Source: an uncultured bacterium (GTDB lineage: Bacteria; Lernaellota; Lernaellaia; Lernaellales; Lernaellaceae). From it: a DNA stretch of 19,739 nucleotides. The stretch is from positions 1 to 19,739 of the forward strand of contig CAZHPN010000117.1 of the NCBI GenBank assembly GCA_964534375.1, given 5' to 3'. The translations under genes were made by a program, and so were the position numbers. Under the pieces are notes generated by a model. It was not told the DNA's origin and made no database searches. It saw only the letters and a program-made list of their open reading frames with translations. Shown here one piece after another: positions 8,029 through 18,221 of the stretch (the stretch's first letter is position 1; each line of letters starts with the position of its first letter).

Positions 8029-8703
8029 ATGATTCGCTTCCACCGGGTCACCAAACGGTACGGCCCGCACACCTACGGCCTGCACGACGTTACCGCACAC
8101 ATTGCCAAGGGCGAGATGGCGTTTTTGTCCGGCCCCTCCGGCGCCGGCAAGACGACGTTTCTGCGGATGATTTACGCGGCAGAAACGCCTACGGACGGCC
8201 AGGTGCTCGTCGCCGGCCGCAACATTGCGAAACTGCGCGAATCGTCGATTCCATATCTGCGGCGCAACGTCGGCGTCGTGTTTCAGGACTTTCGCCTGCT
8301 GGCCGATCGCAGCGTCTTCGAAAACGTGGCCATGGCCCTCGAACCGCTCGCCACGCCGCGCGAACGGCTCCGGCAAAAAACGATGGCTGTGCTCGGCCAG
8401 GTCGGCATGCAGGTGAAAATCGACGAGAAGCCGAACGCGTTGTCCGGCGGCGAACAACAGCGCATCGCGATCGCGCGGGCGCTCGTCAACGAGCCGGCGA
8501 TCATTCTCGCCGACGAGCCGACTGGCAACCTCGACGCCGCCATGAGCCAGCAGATTTTCGACCTGCTGCGGGACATCAATCTGCGCGGCGCCACCGTGGT
8601 CGTCGCCTCGCACAACGATGACCTCGTGGCGCGGTACGCCCAACGCATCTTCCGCCTCGAACGCGGCCGCTTGACCGCGACGGCCGGCGAGGGCCGGCCG
8701 TGA
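8029..8703 (+). CDS. ftsE: cell division ATP-binding protein FtsE
   Basis: GPSGAGKTT Walker A, IPYLRRNVGVVFQDFRLL, LSGGEQQR, ILADEPTGNLD. Confidence 0.95.
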   Translation: MIRFHRVTKRYGPHTYGLHDVTAHIAKGEMAFLSGPSGAGKTTFLRMIYAAETPTDGQVLVAGRNIAKLRESSIPYLRRNVGVVFQDFRLLADRSVFENVAMALEPLATPRERLRQKTMAVLGQVGMQVKIDEKPNALSGGEQQRIAIARALVNEPAIILADEPTGNLDAAMSQQIFDLLRDINLRGATVVVASHNDDLVARYAQRIFRLERGRLTATAGEGRP

Positions 8704-9605
8704 GAGACGTGGTGTACGGGCTGTTCGGCCGCACGTGGCGCAATCTCCGCGCCGATTGGTGGGCCAACGTCAGCACGGTCTTTGCGGTCGGCCTGGCGAT
8801 GTCGATCCCGCTCGTGTTCGCGCTGCTCGCCTGGAACCTGGGGCGATTGGTCGATTCCTTCATCGGTCACCTTGAGGTCGTCGCCTACATCTCCGTCGAC
8901 GCCGCCGACACGCAGATTGCCGCGGCCGCCGAGCGCATCCGGCAGATGCCGCCGGTGGAAACGGTGACCGTCGTCACGCGCGAGCAGGCGCTCCAGCGGT
9001 TCGTCGAAGAAATGCCCGACGCCGCGGGGGTGGCGCACGAATTGGGCGACAACCCGCTGCCGCCGAGTTTGGAAATCGTGCTGCGCCCGGCCTACCGCGA
9101 TCTGCCGCCGACCGCCGACTTCACGGCCCAGATCGCCCGGCTGCCCGGCGTGGTCGAGGTGGACGACGGCCGCCAATGGATCGGCCGGCTCAATCGCGTG
9201 CTTCGCTACCTGTGGATGATCACCCTGTTCATGGGTTTGTTTCTCACGCTGGCCTCGGCCTTGCTGGTCGGCCACGCGATTCGGTTGGCGATTTATCGGC
9301 GGCGCGAGGAAATCGGCATCTACCGGTTGGTGGGCGCGACGAATCGGTTTATCCGCGGTCCGTTGCTGTTTGAAGGCTTTGTCCAAGGCGCCGCCGGGGC
9401 GGCAGTCGGTCTGGCGATCTGCGGGGCGTTGTACCGGTACGTCGCGCATCGGCTGCAAACGGGGGATTCGCTGCAACATTGGCTGCTCGGCGGGCCCGAC
9501 CCGCGGTGGTTTCCGCCGCTGATTGTGGCCGCGGCCGCGGCGATCGGCGGTCTGCTCGGGTTGATTGGCTCGTTCGCCTCGACCCGCCGCTTCCTGAGGA
9601 TCTAG
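8700..9605 (+). CDS. ftsX: cell division permease FtsX
   Basis: NPLPPSLEI, RREEIGIYRLVGATNRFIRGPLLFEG; GTGA overlap with ftsE. Confidence 0.95.
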   Translation: MRDVVYGLFGRTWRNLRADWWANVSTVFAVGLAMSIPLVFALLAWNLGRLVDSFIGHLEVVAYISVDAADTQIAAAAERIRQMPPVETVTVVTREQALQRFVEEMPDAAGVAHELGDNPLPPSLEIVLRPAYRDLPPTADFTAQIARLPGVVEVDDGRQWIGRLNRVLRYLWMITLFMGLFLTLASALLVGHAIRLAIYRRREEIGIYRLVGATNRFIRGPLLFEGFVQGAAGAAVGLAICGALYRYVAHRLQTGDSLQHWLLGGPDPRWFPPLIVAAAAAIGGLLGLIGSFASTRRFLRI

Positions 9606-9610
9606 AACCG

Positions 9611-9682
9611 ATGGCGAATGCGAAAAGGGGAACGAAACGCGCGGCGGCGTTCCGCGTTCCGCATTCGCCATTCGCCATTCTC
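9611..9682. repeat. inverted repeat plus heptamer tandem repeats in the envC 5' end
   Basis: ATGGCGAATGCG (9611-9622) vs CGCATTCGCCAT (9660-9671); cgttccg-cgttccg-cattcgc-cattcgc-cattctc at 9648-9682. Confidence 0.75.
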
Positions 9683-10801
9683 CTGCTGCTGGCGGCGCTG
9701 CTGAGCGCGTCGCTGGCGCGGGCGCAGGCGCCGGACGCCGAGGTGGAAAAACGCGTCGCGGCGGAAAAAGACAAACTGCGCGCTGCGATGCACGCCGAGC
9801 AAGGGGCGCTGCGCCAGATTTACGCGATCGACGCCGTGCGATTTCAGCACGAACGGCAATTGCGCCAAGCCAACGACGGTCTGCGCCAGGTGGAAGCCGA
9901 GATCGCCGACGACCAGGCGACGGCCGCCCGGCTCGAAGCCGATTTGCCGATTCGCGGGGCGCACCTGGCCGCGCGCCTGGCGAGCCTCTACCGCATGGGC
10001 CGCGGCGGCTTCTGGAAAGTCTTGTTCTCGAGCGATTCCTACCGGTCCTTTGCGCGGCGTTACCGGGCGCTGCACCGCGTCGTGCAGGCCGACGCCGAGG
10101 CGTTGTCGATGCATCGGGCGCAATTGCTGGCGTTGCGCAGCCGGCGCGACGCGCTCCGGCAACGGCAGGCCCGGCTGGCCGCGTTGCGCGAACAAGCGAA
10201 ACGGGAAATGCTCGACATCGAGGTCGAGAAGCGGAAGAAAACGTTTCTGCTCGACGAGATTCGCGGCAACAAGACGGTCGCCGCCGGGCTCGCCCGCGAT
10301 TTGGCGAAGCAAGACGCCGCCGTCGGCCGCGCCGTCGCGAACCTGGCGCCGGCAGCTTCGCCGCCGAGCGCGGACCGGCCGCCGCTCCTTGACTTTGCGC
10401 AACGCCGGGGTATGCTGCCGACCCCGGTCGCGGGGCCGATTGTGGGGCGTTTCGGCACGCGGTTGCACGAGGAATTCGGCACGCAGACGCGGTCCAACGG
10501 CATCGACATCGGCGCGCCGGCCGGCGCGCCGGTGCGGTCGGTGGCCGAGGGCGTGGTCAGCTACATCGGCGAGTTTCTCGGGTACGGTCGCGTGCTGATC
10601 GTCGATCACGGGCAGCGGTATCACACGCTGTACGCCCATCTGGGCAATTTTGCGCACGCGAAGGGCGATGTCGTTCACCAGGGCGACGTGCTCGGTTCAG
10701 TGGGCGCCGCGGGTTTGTACGCCGAACCCGCGTTGCATTTTGAGATACGTTACAAAGGGGCGGCGATCGATCCCCTCGAATGGTTGTCGCCGTCGCCCTG
10801 A
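9611..10801 (+). CDS. envC: murein hydrolase activator EnvC family (coiled coil + M23 domain)
   Basis: Signal peptide, coiled coil, NGIDI...GYG..LIVDHG..YHTLYAHL...LHFEIR; position after ftsEX. Confidence 0.85.
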   Translation: MANAKRGTKRAAAFRVPHSPFAILLLLAALLSASLARAQAPDAEVEKRVAAEKDKLRAAMHAEQGALRQIYAIDAVRFQHERQLRQANDGLRQVEAEIADDQATAARLEADLPIRGAHLAARLASLYRMGRGGFWKVLFSSDSYRSFARRYRALHRVVQADAEALSMHRAQLLALRSRRDALRQRQARLAALREQAKREMLDIEVEKRKKTFLLDEIRGNKTVAAGLARDLAKQDAAVGRAVANLAPAASPPSADRPPLLDFAQRRGMLPTPVAGPIVGRFGTRLHEEFGTQTRSNGIDIGAPAGAPVRSVAEGVVSYIGEFLGYGRVLIVDHGQRYHTLYAHLGNFAHAKGDVVHQGDVLGSVGAAGLYAEPALHFEIRYKGAAIDPLEWLSPSP

Positions 10802-10815
10802 TTCCGGAGGAATTC

Positions 10816-12141
10816 ATGTCCCGATCCGCGAAGAAAATCGTCGCTCTGCTTATCGTCGTCTCGGCGGTCATGTGCGGTTGGTACGGCGCCGCCCGCGCCG
10901 TGCAGGCGCTGGCGCCGGACGCCCCGGAGTGGGTCCACATCTTCACGGACGTCCTGGGGATCGTGCACGCCAAGTACGTCGAGGACGTATCGCTCCGCGA
11001 TTTGGTTTACGACGCGCTCGACGGCATGCTCACGCACCTGGATCCGCACAGCGCGTTCATGAAACCCGAGGAAATGCAGGAGTTCGTCAACGATACGCGC
11101 GGCTCGTTCGACGGCCTGGGCATCGAAATCACGGTGCGCGACAACTACATCCTGATCGTCAGCCCGATCGACGGCTCGCCCGCGGCCGACGCCGGCCTGC
11201 AGCCGGGGGACTACATCGTCAAAATCGAAAAGGAATCGACCCGCGGTTTGTCGAGCCTCGACGCCGTGAAAAAACTGCGCGGCAAAGCGGGCACGAAAGT
11301 GAAAATTCAGGTGTGGCGCAAAGGCTGGAGCGAGCCGAAGCCCTTTGAGTTGACGCGCGCGCCGATCACCGTGCAGACGATCCGCAGCAAGTCGCTGGAC
11401 AAGGGCTACGGGTACGTCAAAATCACGCAATTCAACCAGACGACCGCCGATAATCTGCGCGACGCGCTCAAAGGCCTCGAGAAGGCCAACGGCAAGCTCG
11501 ACGGTCTGGTTCTCGATTTGCGCAACAACCCGGGCGGCCTGCTCGACCAGGCGATCGCGGTGTCGGACATGTTCGTCGCCTCCGGCCCGATCGTCTTCAC
11601 GCGCGGCCGCGGCGCCTCGCAAGAGTTCGCCGCCGCCGCCTCCGGGACGGCGTCCTACCGCGACGTCCCGATGACGGTGCTGATCAACGCCGGCAGCGCC
11701 AGCGCGTCGGAAATCGTCGCCGGCTGCCTGCAGGATCATCACCGCGCCGTGTTGATCGGCGAACGCAGCTTCGGCAAGGGTTCGGTGCAAACGATCATCC
11801 CGCTCTCGGACGGCAGCGGCCTGCGCCTGACCATCGCGAAGTATTACACGCCGGCGGGCCGCGACATTCAGGCCAAAGGCATCGATCCCGATCTGGCGGT
11901 CGGCGGCGAGCCGTGGTCCGGTCTCGATGAGAACCAGAAAAAATTGATTCGCGAGGCCGACCTCGAACACCATCTCCAAGGCGCGGGCGAAGGCCCGCCG
12001 GTCGGCGGCGAAAGTCCGATCGTTCCCGAAGACGAGGGCAAGAAGGAAAAACAACCCGCGGGAGATCCGCAACTCGACATGGCGCTGCACGTATTGAAAG
12101 CCTGGCCGGCCTTCCAAAAGGCCGCCACGCCCGCCAAATAA
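10816..12141 (+). CDS. ctpA: S41 family carboxyl-terminal processing protease
   Basis: GGAGG RBS; LDPHS, PDZ GLGIEI, LDLRNNPGGLL, SASASEI, GKGSVQ, GIDPD. Confidence 0.92.
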   Translation: MSRSAKKIVALLIVVSAVMCGWYGAARAVQALAPDAPEWVHIFTDVLGIVHAKYVEDVSLRDLVYDALDGMLTHLDPHSAFMKPEEMQEFVNDTRGSFDGLGIEITVRDNYILIVSPIDGSPAADAGLQPGDYIVKIEKESTRGLSSLDAVKKLRGKAGTKVKIQVWRKGWSEPKPFELTRAPITVQTIRSKSLDKGYGYVKITQFNQTTADNLRDALKGLEKANGKLDGLVLDLRNNPGGLLDQAIAVSDMFVASGPIVFTRGRGASQEFAAAASGTASYRDVPMTVLINAGSASASEIVAGCLQDHHRAVLIGERSFGKGSVQTIIPLSDGSGLRLTIAKYYTPAGRDIQAKGIDPDLAVGGEPWSGLDENQKKLIREADLEHHLQGAGEGPPVGGESPIVPEDEGKKEKQPAGDPQLDMALHVLKAWPAFQKAATPAK

Positions 12142-12146
12142 AGCCG

Positions 12147-13460
12147 ATGCTCGACCGGCGCCGGTCCACTTGGCTCGACCGCGTTGGGCGGCAATTGGCC
12201 GGCGCCCCGCCGTCGGTCCGTTTCGCCGTCGCCGTGGCCGGTCTGATTTTCTTTCTCGGCGTCTCGTCGCTGGCGTGGACGGTCGCCGCGGCCCGCCTGG
12301 CGCCGCTCGTCGAAGCCAGCCTGGCCGAGGCGCCCGCGGCCGACGAAACGCGGCCGGCGGCCGCCGGGGCCGCCGAAACGTTCGCCCAGCGCATCGAACG
12401 CGTGACCGACATCGCCAACGGCGTTTTCCTGGATCTGGGCCTGTCGCGGGCCAATTTTCTGACGCGCTATGCCGATCCGCGGCAGTTCGGCGCGCGCAAA
12501 TTCGACTTCATCGTTTGGGAAGTGTGGGTGGCGCCGGATTTCGACGTCACGCAATTGCTCGACCGCCTGCGCGGCAACAAACGCGTCACGGCGGAAAACG
12601 CGCGCCTGGAGAGCGAGCGGATCGACGAAAAGACCGTGGTCGTCAAAGTCTTCCTCGACGGCATCCAAACCCACCAATTGCTGTTCACGAACGCGGCGCA
12701 GGAAGCGCCCGACGGCGCGCGCGTGATGCTGGCCAACGCCCCGGCCGACGCGACGAAAATCGACATCGCCGCCATCCCCCTGGTCAAATATGCGGGGGCG
12801 CCGCGGCTGGCGATCGTCATCGACGACATCGGCTTCCGCGACGCGGTCGACCGGCTGTTCCTGACGTTGCCCGCCAAGGTGACGTTCAGCGTCCTGCCCT
12901 ACGGGCCGACCTCGCAACAGACGGCGGCGCTCGCGCGGCAGCGCGGCCACGAGGTGATGCTGCACTTGCCGATGCAGCCGCTCGACATGCAGGCGCACGA
13001 CCCGGGCGCCGGCAAGTTGCTGTTGTCGATGTCCGCGGCCGAAATTCGCGGGATCGTCGAGAAGGATCTCCAGGAGTTGCCGGACGTCGTTGGCGTCAAC
13101 AACCACATGGGCAGCGCGTTCACGCGCAACCTCGAGAAAATGCAGGCCGCCCTCGGCCCGATCAAGGAACACAACCTGTTCTTCCTCGACTCGCTGACGA
13201 TCGGCAATTCGGTCGCGTTTCGCGCGGCCAAACTTTCCGGCGTGCGCGCCGCGGTCCGCAATTTATTCCTCGATTACGATCCGCGGCTCGAAGCCATCCA
13301 GCGGCAGGTCGATCTGGCGGGCCGCATCGCGCGGGCGCAGGGGCAAGCCATCGTCATCGGCCACCCGTTCCAAAACACCTTCCAGGCGCTGCAGGAAGGT
13401 TTGCCCAAGCTGCTCGCCGACGGCATCGAAATCACACCGGTCGGGCAACTAGCGCAATAG
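12147..13460 (+). CDS. divergent polysaccharide deacetylase family protein (YibQ-like)
   Basis: LAIVIDDIG, EVMLHLPMQP, GVNNHMGS, FFLDSLT, IVIGHP; N-terminal TM. Confidence 0.92.
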   Translation: MLDRRRSTWLDRVGRQLAGAPPSVRFAVAVAGLIFFLGVSSLAWTVAAARLAPLVEASLAEAPAADETRPAAAGAAETFAQRIERVTDIANGVFLDLGLSRANFLTRYADPRQFGARKFDFIVWEVWVAPDFDVTQLLDRLRGNKRVTAENARLESERIDEKTVVVKVFLDGIQTHQLLFTNAAQEAPDGARVMLANAPADATKIDIAAIPLVKYAGAPRLAIVIDDIGFRDAVDRLFLTLPAKVTFSVLPYGPTSQQTAALARQRGHEVMLHLPMQPLDMQAHDPGAGKLLLSMSAAEIRGIVEKDLQELPDVVGVNNHMGSAFTRNLEKMQAALGPIKEHNLFFLDSLTIGNSVAFRAAKLSGVRAAVRNLFLDYDPRLEAIQRQVDLAGRIARAQGQAIVIGHPFQNTFQALQEGLPKLLADGIEITPVGQLAQ

Positions 13461-13546: not shown

Positions 13547-14167
13547 TCACCCTTCCACCCGCTTCCGCATCGTCTTGACGATGTTCGGCAAATCTCTTTT
13601 GGTGAGATAGTCCTCGATCGTTTTCGGCACCGCGCGGCCGGTGTCCACCGACACGGTGTAATACACGATCGTGCCGTCTTTGTAAGGCTTGAGGCCCCAA
13701 AAGCCGTCGGTGCCGGCGATGTCGTTTTTCTTCGTTTTGTCGAGGGTCCAGGTGATGACGCCGTTCGCGCGATCCACCTTGTGCGTCAGATAGTACGAGA
13801 GTTTGACGAACGCCACTTCGATCTTGAAATTGACATCGACCTGGGCGTCGGTGCGGGTGTACACCTCCGCGGATTTGACGTGCGGCATGAACTGCGGGTA
13901 GTCCTCGTATTTGAGGATCGTATCGATGATCTTGTCTTTGCCCGTCTTGATGTAGCCGATGGCGAGGCCGCCGCCGCGCGTCCGGCCTTGCGCATCCTGG
14001 AACGTCCGGCTTTCGAGAATGATTTCGCCGCTCTCGATTTTGGCGAGATCGGCCGGATTCAGGTCGCGCATTTGCGGGGTCTGCTGCGCGGGCGCAAACC
14101 GCGGCGCGACGCAAATCGCCAGAATCGCCAGCGCGGCGAAGATCGTCAGAAACGCCTGCTTGCTCAT
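13547..14167 (-). CDS. secreted SRPBCC/START (polyketide cyclase-like) domain protein
   Basis: AAAGGA RBS before ATG 14167; signal peptide; YEDYPQFMPHVKSAEV, ITWTLD, GFWGL. Confidence 0.85.
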   Translation of the reverse strand: MSKQAFLTIFAALAILAICVAPRFAPAQQTPQMRDLNPADLAKIESGEIILESRTFQDAQGRTRGGGLAIGYIKTGKDKIIDTILKYEDYPQFMPHVKSAEVYTRTDAQVDVNFKIEVAFVKLSYYLTHKVDRANGVITWTLDKTKKNDIAGTDGFWGLKPYKDGTIVYYTVSVDTGRAVPKTIEDYLTKRDLPNIVKTMRKRVEG

Positions 14168-14201
14168 AACGCATCCTTTCAAAGGGTTCGAACGTCGCGC
14201 G

Positions 14202-14352: not shown

Positions 14353-14628
14353 ATGCGCATCAAAGACTTCGACTGGGATGACGGGAATGAGCTGCATTTG
14401 GCCCTCGGTCACGGGATCGAACCCGAAGAAGCTGAGGAGGTCCTCGCGCTGGCGCCCGTGGTTCGGAAGACCAAGAAAGACCATTATGCAGGCTTTGGGC
14501 GCACGGCGGCCGGCAGGCTGTTGGTGATCGTCTTCGAAATGCGCGAGGCGGGACGCGTCCGGGTCATCACTGGCTGGGACATGCGGGACGCCGAACGCCG
14601 TTATTATCGGCAGCGGCGGAAAGGATAG
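14353..14628 (+). CDS. brnT: BrnT family toxin
   Basis: FDWDDGNELHL..HGI...EAEEV, GRT..GRLLVIVF, RVRVITGWDM...ERRYY. Confidence 0.9.
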   Translation: MRIKDFDWDDGNELHLALGHGIEPEEAEEVLALAPVVRKTKKDHYAGFGRTAAGRLLVIVFEMREAGRVRVITGWDMRDAERRYYRQRRKG

Positions 14629-14631
14629 AAA

Positions 14632-14934
14632 ATGAAAAAGAAGACTGAAAAGCAAGCAGATACTGCGGCCTACTATGACCGCCGCGGCGTGCTGGGTGAA
14701 CTGGAAGAAAAGCCGGTTGAATTCGCGCTGGAAGAGGAATTGCGCGAGCAAATCTTAAATGGCCAACGGAAGCGCCGGCTGAAGAACGTGTCCGTAAAAC
14801 TCGACGAGGCGCAAATTATTGCACTGCGAAAAATTGCCACGCTTCGATCCATCCCGTACCAGACTCTGATTCGGCAGTGGCTTTCGGAAGGGATCGCTAA
14901 GGAACTGCATCTGGGCCGTCGGCGCGGGAAATAA
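14632..14934 (+). CDS. BrnA/CopG-like RHH antitoxin
   Basis: C-terminal KNVSVKLD......LRKIA....IPYQTLIRQWL; directly follows brnT. Confidence 0.85.
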   Translation: MKKKTEKQADTAAYYDRRGVLGELEEKPVEFALEEELREQILNGQRKRRLKNVSVKLDEAQIIALRKIATLRSIPYQTLIRQWLSEGIAKELHLGRRRGK

Positions 14935-14973: not shown

Positions 14974-15019
14974 CGTCATTCGACCGGTTCGATGCTCGGT
15001 CCGTGCGGCGTGTCGCTGA
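14974..15019. repeat. direct repeat copy 2 (3' end of cysS-like CDS)
   Basis: Matches 14256-14301. Confidence 0.95.
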
Positions 15020-16379
15020 TCTGGAAGCCGCGCTGGCGCAATTCGTCGCGGATCGCGTCGGCGGCAGTGTAATCGCCGGCGGCGCGGGCCGTTTCCCGGC
15101 GGGCCAGCAATTCCTCGATTTCGCGATCGAGTTGGTCGTCGGCGAAATCGAAGACGCCGAGCACCGCATCGATGCGGTAGAGCGTGGCCAGGGCGTCGCG
15201 GGCGTCGGCGCGCGACAGCGGCTGTTCGGCTTGCAGGGCGTTGGTCTTGCGCACGAAGTCGCCGAAGACGGCCATCGCCGCGGAAATGTTGAGATCGTCG
15301 TCGAGCGCGGCGAAGAAATCGCTCTCGGCCTTCATCGCCAGCGCGGCCAGTTCGGGATGCCGTTTGGCGCCGCGCGCATGCCTGAGGCGGCGGGCGAACC
15401 CGTCGATCCGTGCGAGCGCCGCGCGGGCCTGCTCGAGGCCCTCCTCGCTGTATTGCAGCGGCTGGCGGTAGTGGCACGAAATCATCCAGAAGCGCAGCAG
15501 CCGGCCGTCGAAACCGGCCTCGCGCAGGTCGCGCACGGTTTTCATGTTGCCGGAAAAGGCGCTCATTTTCTTGCCGCCGGCGTACACCAATTCGCTGTGC
15601 AGCCACGTGTGCGCGGGCGGCTGGCCGGTCAGCGCGGAAACGATCGCGATCTCGTTCTCGTGGTGCGGAAACGCCAGATCGCGGGTCGATACGTGCAGAT
15701 CGAATTTCAGGCCGAGGTAGTGCGTGCTCATCGCGGCGCACTGCACGTGCCACCCGGGCCGCACGTTTCCCCATTCCGACTTGACGCCGATGCCGCGCCG
15801 CAACTCGGCCAGGTCGCAGCGCTTGAACATGACGAAATCCCGCGGGTCGTCCTTCTCGTAGTCGTCCAGGTCGACCGTGGAGCCCACGCGGATTTTATCC
15901 GGATTGACGCCCGAGAACCGGCCGTAGCCGCGCGTCTTGCTCACGTCGAAGTAGACGTTGCGCAGCATCTCGTAACAGTAACCCGCCTGCATCAGCTTGC
16001 GGGTGAGTTCCAGCATTTGCTCGATGTGGTCGCTCGTGCGCGGCGTGTAATCGGCGGGCAGCACGCCCAGCGTCTCCATGTCGTCGAAAAACGCCTGCTC
16101 GAAGCGGCGCGTGTGCGTCCGCAGGTCTTCGCCGGCCTCGGCGCTGGCGGCGATCGTGCGGTCGTCGAGATCGGTGATGTTCATGACGTGCACGACGCGG
16201 TAACCGCGCACGAGCAGCACGCGCTTGATCAGGTCGTTGACGACGATCCGCCGCGCCAGGCTCAGGTGCACGTGCGCATCCACCGTCGGGCCGTCGGCGT
16301 ACATCTTGACCACGCCCGGTTCGAGCGAGTGAAACGTCTGCACGCGGCGCGTCAGCACATTGCGGAATTTCAGGGCCAT
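14976..16379 (-). CDS. cysS: cysteinyl-tRNA synthetase-like protein with degenerate catalytic motifs
   Basis: GPTV, NITD, RPGWH..C, FPHHENE, HYR.PL, DDDLN, AADAIRDEL retained; HIGH becomes HLSL, KMSKS becomes KMSAF, MYVCG becomes MYADG. Confidence 0.85.
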   Translation of the reverse strand: MALKFRNVLTRRVQTFHSLEPGVVKMYADGPTVDAHVHLSLARRIVVNDLIKRVLLVRGYRVVHVMNITDLDDRTIAASAEAGEDLRTHTRRFEQAFFDDMETLGVLPADYTPRTSDHIEQMLELTRKLMQAGYCYEMLRNVYFDVSKTRGYGRFSGVNPDKIRVGSTVDLDDYEKDDPRDFVMFKRCDLAELRRGIGVKSEWGNVRPGWHVQCAAMSTHYLGLKFDLHVSTRDLAFPHHENEIAIVSALTGQPPAHTWLHSELVYAGGKKMSAFSGNMKTVRDLREAGFDGRLLRFWMISCHYRQPLQYSEEGLEQARAALARIDGFARRLRHARGAKRHPELAALAMKAESDFFAALDDDLNISAAMAVFGDFVRKTNALQAEQPLSRADARDALATLYRIDAVLGVFDFADDQLDREIEELLARRETARAAGDYTAADAIRDELRQRGFQISDTPHGPSIEPVE

Positions 16380-16391
16380 ACCGCCGTACCC

Positions 16392-16811
16392 CTAACGACT
16401 GGTGTTCGGTCGCGCCAACGCCTCGAGAACGGCGTGGCGCGCCATTTCGGCAAGCCGCACAGCTTCGACGGCGTCGTCCTCCGACAACGACGGCAAATCT
16501 CCGGGATAGCGGTCGGTGACGCTACACGGATCCAGCGCGGTGCATTCCTGCAACGATGCGGCCAGCGCCGGGTCGGCTTCCGCCGGCAAATCGAGCAACA
16601 GACCCAGCATGTGCGTTTTCGGGAACTCAATCTCGTGGGCCGCCAGCGCTGCCGTGAGGTGTTTTTCCACTGACTGTTGCGCGTGAAAACCGATCGCCGC
16701 AAGATACGGCGTGTTCTCACTCAATAAAAAAGCGGCGACGCGGTAGTCCTCGTCGGCTTTGACCAGCCGCTGTTGAACAAGTTCGGCGCGGACCTGTTCA
16801 AGCGGCTTCAT
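16392..16811 (-). CDS. HEPN domain protein
   Basis: KADEDY..A, FHAQQSVEK.L, FPKTH.L..L, DRYP; start overlaps the MNT 3' end. Confidence 0.88.
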   Translation of the reverse strand: MKPLEQVRAELVQQRLVKADEDYRVAAFLLSENTPYLAAIGFHAQQSVEKHLTAALAAHEIEFPKTHMLGLLLDLPAEADPALAASLQECTALDPCSVTDRYPGDLPSLSEDDAVEAVRLAEMARHAVLEALARPNTSR

Positions 16812-17118
16812 AAATGACGACGCCTTTCTTGTTGGCGGGAAACGCAATCCCGCCGATCACATCCTTGGTTTCCTCAAAGCGCTCGGCCGTCATGACGATG
16901 ACGTCGAACGGCACACCCATTCCGCGCAGCGCATTGAGGATTCGCACCGTCTCGCCCCGCGGGTCGAAGGCGCCGTTTTCGAGAACCAGCAAGTCAATGT
17001 CGCTATCGTCGTTCGTCTCGCCCGCGGCGGCCGAGCCGAATAAAATAATTCGCGCCGGTTGGGCCACGCCCGTGATGCGGCGAACGATTTCGTTTTTCAG
17101 CGCGGGATCGACGCCCAT
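16798..17118 (-). CDS. minimal nucleotidyltransferase (MNT)
   Basis: ILFGS-X10-DIDLLV and PFDVIV motifs. Confidence 0.9.
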   Translation of the reverse strand: MGVDPALKNEIVRRITGVAQPARIILFGSAAAGETNDDSDIDLLVLENGAFDPRGETVRILNALRGMGVPFDVIVMTAERFEETKDVIGGIAFPANKKGVVIYEAA

Positions 17119-17202
17119 CGTGATTCGCCTTTCGCCTAACGTCCAAGTTAATGCCAAAGTTTTTGTAGAATAAATCCGAACGCTTGGCAACCTGAACGCG
17201 GC

Positions 17203-18117
17203 CTACGCCGCGGGGCTCGGAAACAGATTCGTCGACAGATACCGTTCGCCGCCGTCGGCCAGCAAGACGACGATCAGGCCGCTCGCGATTTCCTTCGCCT
17301 TTTCGAGCGCGAGCCACATCGCGGCGCCGCTGCTCATGCCGCACAGCAGGCCCTCTTCGCGCGCGAGGCGGCGCGTCGTGGCGTACGCGTCTTCGTCCTG
17401 CACGATGCGTTTTTCGTCGACGGCCTTTTTGTTCCAGATGCCCGGCACGTACGCCTCTTTGAGGCTCTTCAGGCCCTGAATCTTGTGCCCGATCTTCGGC
17501 TCGGCGGCGACGATCTGCACCGCCGGGTTTTGTTCCTTAAGATAGCGCGAAACGCCCATCACCGTGCCAGTCGTGCCGATCGCGCCGACGAAATGCGTCA
17601 CCTGGCCGTCCGTCTGGCGCCAGATTTCCGGTCCGGTGCCGCGATAATGCGCCAGCGGATTGGCCTCGTTGTTGTACTGATCGACCAATGCGAATTTGCC
17701 GTCCTTGTCGGCGCGCTCCATCTCGTAGACCCGCTCGATCGCGCCGTCGGTGCCCAGCTCGCCGGGCGTTAACAAAAACTCCGCTCCGTAGGCCGCGAGA
17801 ATTTTACGCCGTTCGACGCTGACGCTTTCGCTCATCGCCAGCAGGCAGCGATAGCCTTTGAGCGTGCAAACCATCGCCAGGCCGATGCCCGTGTTGCCGC
17901 TCGTGGCTTCGAGCACGGTCATGCCGGCTTTCAGCTTGCCGCTCTGTTCGGCGGCTTCCACCATCGCCAGGCCGATGCGGTCTTTGACCGACCCGCCCGG
18001 ATTGGCGCCTTCGAGCTTGGCGAGAATCGTCACGCGCGGATTCGGATTCATCCGCCGAATCTCCGCGACGGGCGTCTTGCCGATCAGGTCCAGCACGTGC
18101 GGCTGTAACTTTTCCAA
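17203..18117 (-). CDS. cysM: PLP-dependent cysteine synthase (CysK/CysM family)
   Basis: IGKTP, KLEGANPGGSVKDR, EATSGNTG, GTTGT, GMSSGA, DGGERYLS; TTG start 18117 with GGAG RBS; CysM vs CysK assignment tentative. Confidence 0.88.
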   Translation of the reverse strand: MEKLQPHVLDLIGKTPVAEIRRMNPNPRVTILAKLEGANPGGSVKDRIGLAMVEAAEQSGKLKAGMTVLEATSGNTGIGLAMVCTLKGYRCLLAMSESVSVERRKILAAYGAEFLLTPGELGTDGAIERVYEMERADKDGKFALVDQYNNEANPLAHYRGTGPEIWRQTDGQVTHFVGAIGTTGTVMGVSRYLKEQNPAVQIVAAEPKIGHKIQGLKSLKEAYVPGIWNKKAVDEKRIVQDEDAYATTRRLAREEGLLCGMSSGAAMWLALEKAKEIASGLIVVLLADGGERYLSTNLFPSPAA

Positions 18118-18161: not shown

Positions 18162-18221
18162 GAACGATGGGGCGTTGGACGGCCCGCTCGTTGCAAAAAA
18201 ACTTCATATCGGAGGCGCAGC

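Follow-up and report, generated by a model that had tools for sequence, protein, structure and literature searches.

A CysRS-like protein linked to a cysteine synthase is probably a sensor or docking partner, not a tRNA ligase

The stretch of DNA analysed here (the window; 19,739 nucleotides) is contig CAZHPN010000117.1 of assembly GCA_964534375.1, from an uncultured bacterium of the family Lernaellaceae, and its minus strand carries a gene for a paralog of cysteinyl-tRNA synthetase (CysRS) downstream of a gene for a cysteine synthase. The CysRS-like gene (14976..16379, minus strand) has an ATG start and no internal stops, and encodes a protein of 467 residues (P0002). Every motif string that a preliminary description of the window had quoted is present in the translation of 14976-16379 (MYADGPTV, HLSL, DFVMFK, WHVQC, DLHVSTRDL, FPHHENE and KMSAFSGN). 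The frame is intact, and Pfam finds the CysRS catalytic domain (2.9e-82), DALR_2 and CysS_C, which bears out the statement that the DALR/anticodon region is kept without a frameshift. When aligned with E. coli CysRS, the protein is changed at one of the four Zn ligands (D29 at the position of Cys28), at the last residue of HIGH (H38-L-S-L41 for H37-I-G-H40) and at the second KMSKS lysine (K271 and A274 for Lys266 and Lys269). Thus, within a catalytic domain of the Rossmann fold, HIGH reads HLSL and KMSKS reads KMSAF; the GGG loop reads VST. The other Zn ligands are kept, as previously described, with C214, H239 and E243 at the positions of Cys209, His234 and Glu238. W210 corresponds to Trp205, and R432, D441 and R444 to E. 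coli R427, D436 and R439. At the column of E. coli W432 the protein has Tyr, and canonical rows have Phe (12) or Trp (8).

The upstream gene (17203..18117, minus strand) encodes a CysM-like cysteine synthase of 304 residues that is dependent on pyridoxal phosphate (PLP), referred to below as PALP. Translation probably begins at a TTG (18117) that follows a GGAG; the open frame extends further, to an ATG at 18207. PALP scored 364.7 bits against the cysKM subfamily model, over the cut-off of 344, and 364.6 bits against the cysM equivalog model, under the cut-off of 394. In the window, the PALP and CysRS-like genes lie on the same strand in one gene string. In the related genomes that have the paralog (5/5), PALP ends 1-4 nt before the CysRS-like start, as judged by open reading frame (ORF) calls, and a gene for an SRPBCC protein follows. 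The family members G003 and G006, which lack the paralog, have only a cysK-type match, at 45-47% identity.

Searches with the CysRS-like protein showed that the same two modules are usually fused. Beyond a group at 71-88% identity, the search returned proteins of ~465 residues at 53-56% identity (the 55% group) and, further out, hundreds of proteins of ~760 residues with PF00291 and CysRS domains, which public records name 'cysteine--tRNA ligase'. For a survey of loci, one genome per species was scanned and the best 80 loci were taken. PALP and the CysRS-like protein shared one open frame, PALP first, at 76 of these 80 loci. Of the remaining four, one had two overlapping ORFs (L021), two were interrupted by a contig end (L034 and L050), and in one (L007, in genome G012) the CysRS-like gene stood alone, with no PALP within 624 nt upstream. 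The module was found in at least 80 species-level genomes in one scan, mostly of Desulfobacterales, with one complete genome among them (Desulfonema magnum, locus L053). One of the roles guessed at in the preliminary description was that of a partner of cysteine synthase, and this guess was well founded: PALP lies in the same gene string here, abuts the CysRS-like gene in all five relatives, and is fused to it at most of the surveyed loci. The window PALP is 55-62% identical to 19 PALP halves of fusions and 44-46% identical to the other two PALP genes of its own genome. Since it is closer to the former, both halves of the window module trace to the fusion family.

A tree (IQ-TREE quick search, LG+C20, midpoint root) was built from 64 of 122 aligned sequences, hand-picked to cover each group. 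It parted 44 paralog rows from 20 canonical rows by a branch of length 0.52 with a support of 100 in the Shimodaira-Hasegawa-like approximate likelihood ratio test (SH-aLRT). A clade sharing the substitutions, as envisaged in the preliminary description, therefore exists. The window clade (14 rows) had support 100, as did the window clade together with the 55% group, and the two were nested among fusion rows in a group of 38 (support 87). If this support-87 branch is correct and the root lies among the canonical rows, the split and stand-alone forms would seem to derive from a fused ancestor by fission. The window form differs from the fusions in being two genes rather than one, and in its first Zn ligand, which is Asp in 18/18 window-clade sequences and Cys in 78/78 fusions. 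Two further loci, L118 (G045:C27) and L095 (G031:C94), have a CysRS with canonical motifs (HIGN, KMAKS/KMSKS) in frames of 723 and 646 residues with long N-terminal extensions; L118 lies on a very long branch of the tree.

Which residues are lost and which are kept was read from the full alignment of 122 sequences, comprising 20 canonical rows, 78 fusion-type rows, six of the 55% group and 18 of the window clade (paralogs, n = 102). In the canonical set, 104 columns reached a conservation of at least 90%. Of these, 75 were kept in at least 80% of the 102 paralogs, five were switched to another residue (T116S, R168T, G206V, S215A and G231S) and 24 were variable. The changes are concentrated towards the N-terminus, with 27 of the 29 changed columns within residues 1-300, while 14 of the 16 conserved C-terminal columns were kept. 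Three features that class I synthetases use to handle ATP and the transition state are lost clade-wide, with one fusion row excepted at HIGH: the final residue of HIGH, the second lysine of KMSKS and the GGG loop. At the last HIGH residue, canonical rows have His (13) or Asn (7), the window clade Leu (18), the 55% group Leu (5) or Met (1), and the fusions Glu (49), Leu (15), Gln (9), Val (3) or Met (1), with a single His in row L069, which reads DIGH. The second KMSKS lysine is present in all 20 canonical rows. It is replaced by Arg (7), Ala (6) or Pro (5) in the window clade and by Arg in the 55% group (6), and the commonest letters in the fusions are Glu (32), Arg (23), Asp (5), Ser (4) and Leu (4); the KMSKS loop is also shortened and acidic in many fusions. 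The GGG loop of the paralogs reads [TVAI]S[STG], and an Arg that is invariant in the canonical rows, at window column 168, is Thr in 102/102 paralogs.

At the metal site, Cys28 is Cys in all canonical rows (20), fusions (78) and members of the 55% group (6), and Asp in the whole window clade (18). Cys209 is kept in 20 canonical rows, 74 fusions, six rows of the 55% group and all 18 of the window clade. Glu238 is kept in 20, 71, 6 and 18 rows of the same groups, and His234 in 20, 78, 6 and 18. The Trp205 equivalent is also kept. These motif changes are not chance or sequencing noise, because Asp occupies the C28 column in 18/18 clade members and because a DNA contig from another sample's run covers 15004-16295 (12 letters differ) and 16241-17518 (0 differ). 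Overall, the residue pattern points to a remodelled site, not to general decay of the sequence.

The residues that read the anticodon are strongly conserved. Arg427, Asp436 and Arg439 are anticodon contacts in the 1U0B complex, according to the part of PMC13449415 that was available. Their columns are R19 K1, D20 and R20 in the canonical rows, and the three are kept in 76/78 fusions (the other two rows end earlier), 6/6 of the 55% group and 18/18 of the window clade. This conservation bears on one alternative, in which the CysRS-like half does nothing but sense the end product: cysteine bound at its metal site would inhibit PALP, and the anticodon domain would serve only for folding or dimer contacts. 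Such a protein would be strictly comparable to HisZ, a HisRS paralog that has no adenylation activity and serves an enzyme of histidine biosynthesis (from an excerpt of PMC9437257). The pairing with the cognate amino acid's synthase fits this precedent, and the Zn/cysteine pocket is largely kept. However, the exact anticodon contacts are near-invariant although the C-terminal part is otherwise only 36-47% identical, and some fusions persist without pocket ligands (WHLQA with FPHHENI in three rows, WHIQS in one). We therefore regard a pure sensor as improbable. The intact fusions that have lost pocket ligands, which also include FPHHENV, are rows L082, L083, L084, L034, L063 and L041, and it follows from them that parts of the clade can dispense with the metal/cysteine pocket.

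Among the paralogs, conservation is highest in the connective peptide (CP) region (131-180), where mean identity is 0.74 among the fusions and 0.46 among the canonical rows. The clade motifs of this region (Thr168, TVDLDDYEK..PRDF and an inserted L.EL.RG) are all present in the window protein, and 20 paralog-specific near-invariant columns cluster at 163-196. A conserved CP region, kept anticodon readers and covalent fusion to a PLP enzyme of the beta-replacement type would all suit a scaffold for tRNA-dependent conversion. In this model, the PALP half would convert the residue carried by an acylated tRNA-Cys that the CysRS-like half keeps in place, by analogy with the action of SepCysS on Sep-tRNA-Cys. 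The PALP half itself argues otherwise. Its closest PDB relatives are enterobacterial CysM, and these CysM/CysK enzymes are ordinary ones that use free substrate; in addition, the 24 rows of the PALP alignment do not vary at the PLP lysine or in the TSGNTG and GTTGT loops. The TSGNTG loop of CysK/CysM holds the free alpha-carboxylate, and we know of no fold-type II PLP enzyme that acts on aminoacyl-tRNA. Moreover, SepRS (TIGR00470) was over its cut-off in 0/5 carrier genomes, including that of the window, with a best score of 47 bits. A conversion scaffold is thus very unlikely.

The draft genome from which the window comes is 94% complete and comprises 381 contigs (6.3 Mb). It contains the second, canonical cysS for which the preliminary description had suggested a search. 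This gene, on contig C115, scored 555.7 bits, compared to 355.2 for the CysRS-like gene, and its motifs are canonical (YVCGV, HVGH, WHIEC, DIHGGGQDL and KMSKSL). Canonical cysS was likewise found, at 481-605 bits, in 5/5 checked genomes with the fusion or the split form. The CysRS-like gene is therefore not the housekeeping CysRS. The same genome also has a cysK (457.8 bits) that adjoins a cysE-like gene on contig C28, and a third PALP gene. ARAGORN found 48 tRNA genes in the draft, including one tRNA-Cys(GCA) and one tRNA-Sec, and none within the window. The genome also has 50 open frames of at least 300 residues with at least 7% Cys (for example on C2, C146 and C247), the largest of which have 201 Cys in 1088 residues and 181 Cys in 1019 residues. 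Its cysteine demand may therefore be unusual, which could bear on the keeping of a second cysteine synthase module.

The gene is maintained in most of the family. Among the seven other species genomes of the family, five have both the paralog (71-77% identity) and a second CysRS-type match (37-41%), and two genomes of genus g4 have only the 37-41% match, without the paralog. The paralog is thus kept in 6/8 family genomes, across four genera, and in 7/17 species genomes of the class. The ratio of nonsynonymous to synonymous substitution rates (dN/dS, by Nei-Gojobori) of the CysRS-like gene was 0.07-0.10 in three close pairs (dS 0.17-0.23). Distant pairs, for which saturation of dS is probable, gave 0.21-0.43, and the ratios for the adjacent PALP gene were nearly the same. 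Neutral decay, with a ratio near 1, is not seen, and the sequence comparisons indicate that the gene is under purifying selection. A young pseudogene or decaying cysS duplicate, which would account for the degenerate catalytic signature motifs, is refuted by these selection and conservation data. It would have to be reconciled with an intact frame, a dN/dS of 0.07-0.43, 75 of 104 canonical-invariant columns kept, a confident structural model and retention in most of the family, and we consider its probability negligible.

The structural model, from AlphaFold2 (AF2) with a 52-row alignment, had a predicted local distance difference test (pLDDT) score of 92.4 and a predicted template modelling (pTM) score of 0.89, with only the loop 166-173 unsure. 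Foldseek matched it to 8qhp_A with a template modelling (TM) score of 0.93 (target-normalised), to the tRNA-bound 1u0b_B with 0.80 over 480 columns and to MshC with 0.75. The protein thus resembles canonical CysRS (TIGR00435; E. coli CysS, 1LI5/1U0B; 8QHP) in its four-part architecture, in its fold (TM 0.80-0.93) and in its sequence (33-37% identity). It differs from canonical CysRS in its degenerate motifs, in its CP-region insertion and motif, in its link to PALP and in being a second copy beside cysS.

The predicted complex of PALP with the CysRS-like protein scored 0.50, 0.54 and 0.52, compared to 0.00 for the best of three controls; contact agreement in the complex runs was at least 93%, and partner pLDDT was at least 87. 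In the calibration, the 0.52 mark was reached by 116/157 solved complexes and by 2/215 mismatched pairs, but only 18/157 solved complexes, together with both passing mismatches, reached it at a score of 0.60 or less. The models therefore give mild support to binding of the two proteins, for which the prior is already high as relatives are fused. The D. magnum fusion (759 residues, 35-row alignment), modelled by AF2 as a monomer, had a pLDDT of 85 and a pTM of 0.59, with a linker of pLDDT below 50.

The two genes have been pushed apart in the window by a toxin-antitoxin-type cassette. It consists of a gene for an MntA-like nucleotidyltransferase (MNT, antitoxin-type; 16798..17118, minus strand) and a toxin-type gene with a HEPN domain (16392..16811, minus strand), which overlaps the MNT stop and has its own stop 12 nt before the ATG of the CysRS-like gene. 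This cassette is absent from the PALP/CysRS-like junction in 5/5 related genomes. Its insertion is not an assembly error, because the other sample's contig spans 16241-17518 without a mismatch. On the other side of the CysRS-like gene lies a BrnT-like and CopG/BrnA-like pair (14353..14934, plus strand; 32.0 bits against a Pfam cut-off of 34.5 and 26.5 against 28, both under the cut-offs). It separates the CysRS-like gene from the SRPBCC gene, and the two adjoin directly in relatives. With MNT/HEPN at one junction and the BrnT/CopG-like pair at the other, both flanks of the gene have therefore taken up cassettes of toxin-antitoxin type. Contigs from RNA libraries (X5, X7 and X8) map only to the MNT/HEPN genes and one piece of PALP; these contigs are assembled and may include DNA, so they are uninformative on expression of the CysRS-like gene.

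The SRPBCC gene (13547..14182, minus strand) encodes an exported protein (Polyketide_cyc), and its position downstream of the CysRS-like gene is conserved in relatives. Homologues are found at L108:9499-10179, at L110:9433-10113 (with a 4-nt overlap) and at L112:3191-3880, with a distant one nearby in G012. At fusion loci, a protein of 335 residues without a Pfam family is encoded ~23 nt downstream in 47/51 cluster members (for example L060:7421-8428), and surE, a gene for an HD/OB-fold protein and tmk recur upstream. The 335-residue protein is unrelated to the SRPBCC neighbour. A common third partner was rejected, and the surE/HD-OB/tmk/335-residue pattern was treated as probable synteny of related genomes. 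The rest of the neighbourhood (8029-13460, plus strand) is an ordinary division and envelope cluster with ftsE, ftsX, an M23 (EnvC-like) peptidase, an S41 C-terminal processing peptidase and a divergent polysaccharide deacetylase.

What might a degenerate CysRS do beside a cysteine synthase? The reading we favour, to which we give roughly an even chance, is that it is a subunit that does not charge tRNA but associates with the synthase and binds tRNA-Cys, perhaps along with cysteine. This agrees with the preliminary description, which had taken the gene to be a repurposed, non-aminoacylating paralog; both the loss of charging and the binding of tRNA-Cys are deduced from residues. The CysRS-derived subunit would be the detached C-terminal half of a two-part module of which PALP is the other half, a single polypeptide in most carriers that would have become two adjacent genes in this lineage. 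It would bind tRNA-Cys through its intact anticodon-binding domain, and its remodelled metal site (Asp/Cys/His/Glu) might bind cysteine or another thiol. The activity or placement of the synthase could thereby be coupled to the state of the tRNA-Cys or cysteine pool, by activation with uncharged tRNA, by inhibition with cysteine, or by docking only. Such a coupling would resemble the action of HisZ on HisG, or that of the HisRS-like domain of GCN2. The protein is probably, then, a sensor or docking partner and not a tRNA ligase.

Several points weigh against this reading. The protein scored 355.7 bits against the NCBIfam cysS model TIGR00435, above the cut-off of 340. The first His of HIGH is kept in 12/18 window-clade and 66/78 fusion rows, and the first Lys of KMSKS in 18/18 and 69/78, respectively. 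Human TyrRS is among the active class I enzymes without a second KMSKS lysine, and the retained cysteine pocket is equally needed by a working ligase. The canonical columns were defined on only 20 sequences, chosen from loci at hand. In genome G012, the CysRS-like gene and its matching PALP (66% identity) lie on different contigs; no fixed packing of the two modules was predicted in the AF2 fold of the D. magnum fusion; and no dedicated second tRNA-Cys was found in the 94%-complete draft, which has a single tRNA-Cys gene.

Passing the TIGR00435 cut-off and keeping the first HIGH His and KMSKS Lys are also what would be expected if the ligase were still active, with an unorthodox ATP site. Cysteine, or a PALP product such as a cysteine analogue, a persulfide or selenocysteine, would then be channelled from the synthase onto tRNA-Cys or another acceptor. 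Such a ligase would account for the retention of three Zn ligands, Trp205 and the full tRNA-binding architecture, and for five active-site columns that have switched to a new conserved residue rather than decayed. In contrast, no paralog group has Lys among its commonest letters at the second KMSKS lysine, HIGH ends in L/E/Q/M/V in every row but one, GGG has become [TVAI]S[STG], and the Arg to Thr change at column 168 is universal among the paralogs. Canonical cysS is also retained in every carrier checked. Finally, the same C28D change crippled E. coli CysRS, the translation activity of which was strongly attenuated (PMC5660078, in the part available). With this evidence on both sides, we think an active ligase unlikely. 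The available part of the same paper gives K73, K76, K266 and K269 as needed for the persulfide-synthase side activity (CPERS) of E. coli CysRS. A CPERS role is not favoured, as the equivalents of K73, K76 and K269 in the window protein are R, A and A.

There is also a consequence for annotation: the protein passes the cysS cut-off, and the fused relatives carry the name 'cysteine--tRNA ligase', which is probably wrong. MshC, the mycothiol cysteine ligase, is likewise a CysRS-derived second copy, but it is an ATP-dependent ligase, and the window protein scored 182.2 bits against its model (TIGR03447), far under the cut-off of 485.1. CysRS* of Desulfobacterales has no anticodon-binding domain, lies beside selC*/selB* and is presumed to aminoacylate a special tRNA (excerpt of PMC5389517). 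This identity was rejected, since the window protein has an anticodon-binding domain and neither a selB* nor a selC* neighbour. The part of a 2022 review that was available lists only MshC and CysRS* as CysRS paralogs (PMC9437257). Available parts of papers on class I synthetase paralogs in peptide synthesis (PMC2922099), on SepRS systems (PMC8762117) and on a synthetase census (PMC5388404) were also consulted, and full-text literature searches found no description of a CysRS-like protein tied to a cysteine synthase. The closest likeness is to the Desulfobacterales PALP-CysRS fusions, which belong to the same clade and have lost the same ATP motifs, kept the anticodon readers and retained the same partner enzyme. 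The window module differs from them in being split, with a toxin-antitoxin cassette between its halves, in its Asp Zn ligand and in belonging to another, small host lineage. By sequence, the split Asp variant is thus a new member of a CysRS-like clade that is widespread but undescribed and whose proteins pair with cysteine synthase.

Two known systems offer parallels for the favoured reading. HisZ is a class II protein without an anticodon-binding domain, and we know of no fused form of it. The likeness of the window protein to HisZ, the regulatory subunit of HisG, is one of logic only, without homology; the window protein keeps its tRNA-reading domain, and most of its relatives are fused. In GCN2, the eIF2-alpha kinase, a degenerate HisRS-like domain is fused to an effector enzyme and binds uncharged tRNA to report amino-acid supply; GCN2 is eukaryotic, has a kinase as effector and is not specific for one tRNA. 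By GCN2-like logic, a retired CysRS might sense the tRNA-Cys pool, using its intact anticodon reader together with a remodelled pocket for the 3'-end and cysteine, and turn a second, dedicated cysteine synthase on or off. We put this forward tentatively, as a possible though less than probable form of the coupling. If it is true, translational demand would set cysteine supply directly, and this demand could be extreme in this lineage, given the Cys-rich frames of the genome.

The split Asp variant has practical value, in that it offers two separately expressible subunits together with a natural variant of the metal site. If the favoured reading is true, this clade would be a new example of a synthetase turned into a regulator of, or dock for, the synthesis of its own amino acid, in which, unlike HisZ, the tRNA reader is kept. 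It would then also give a direct handle on how cysteine synthesis is tied to tRNA-Cys.

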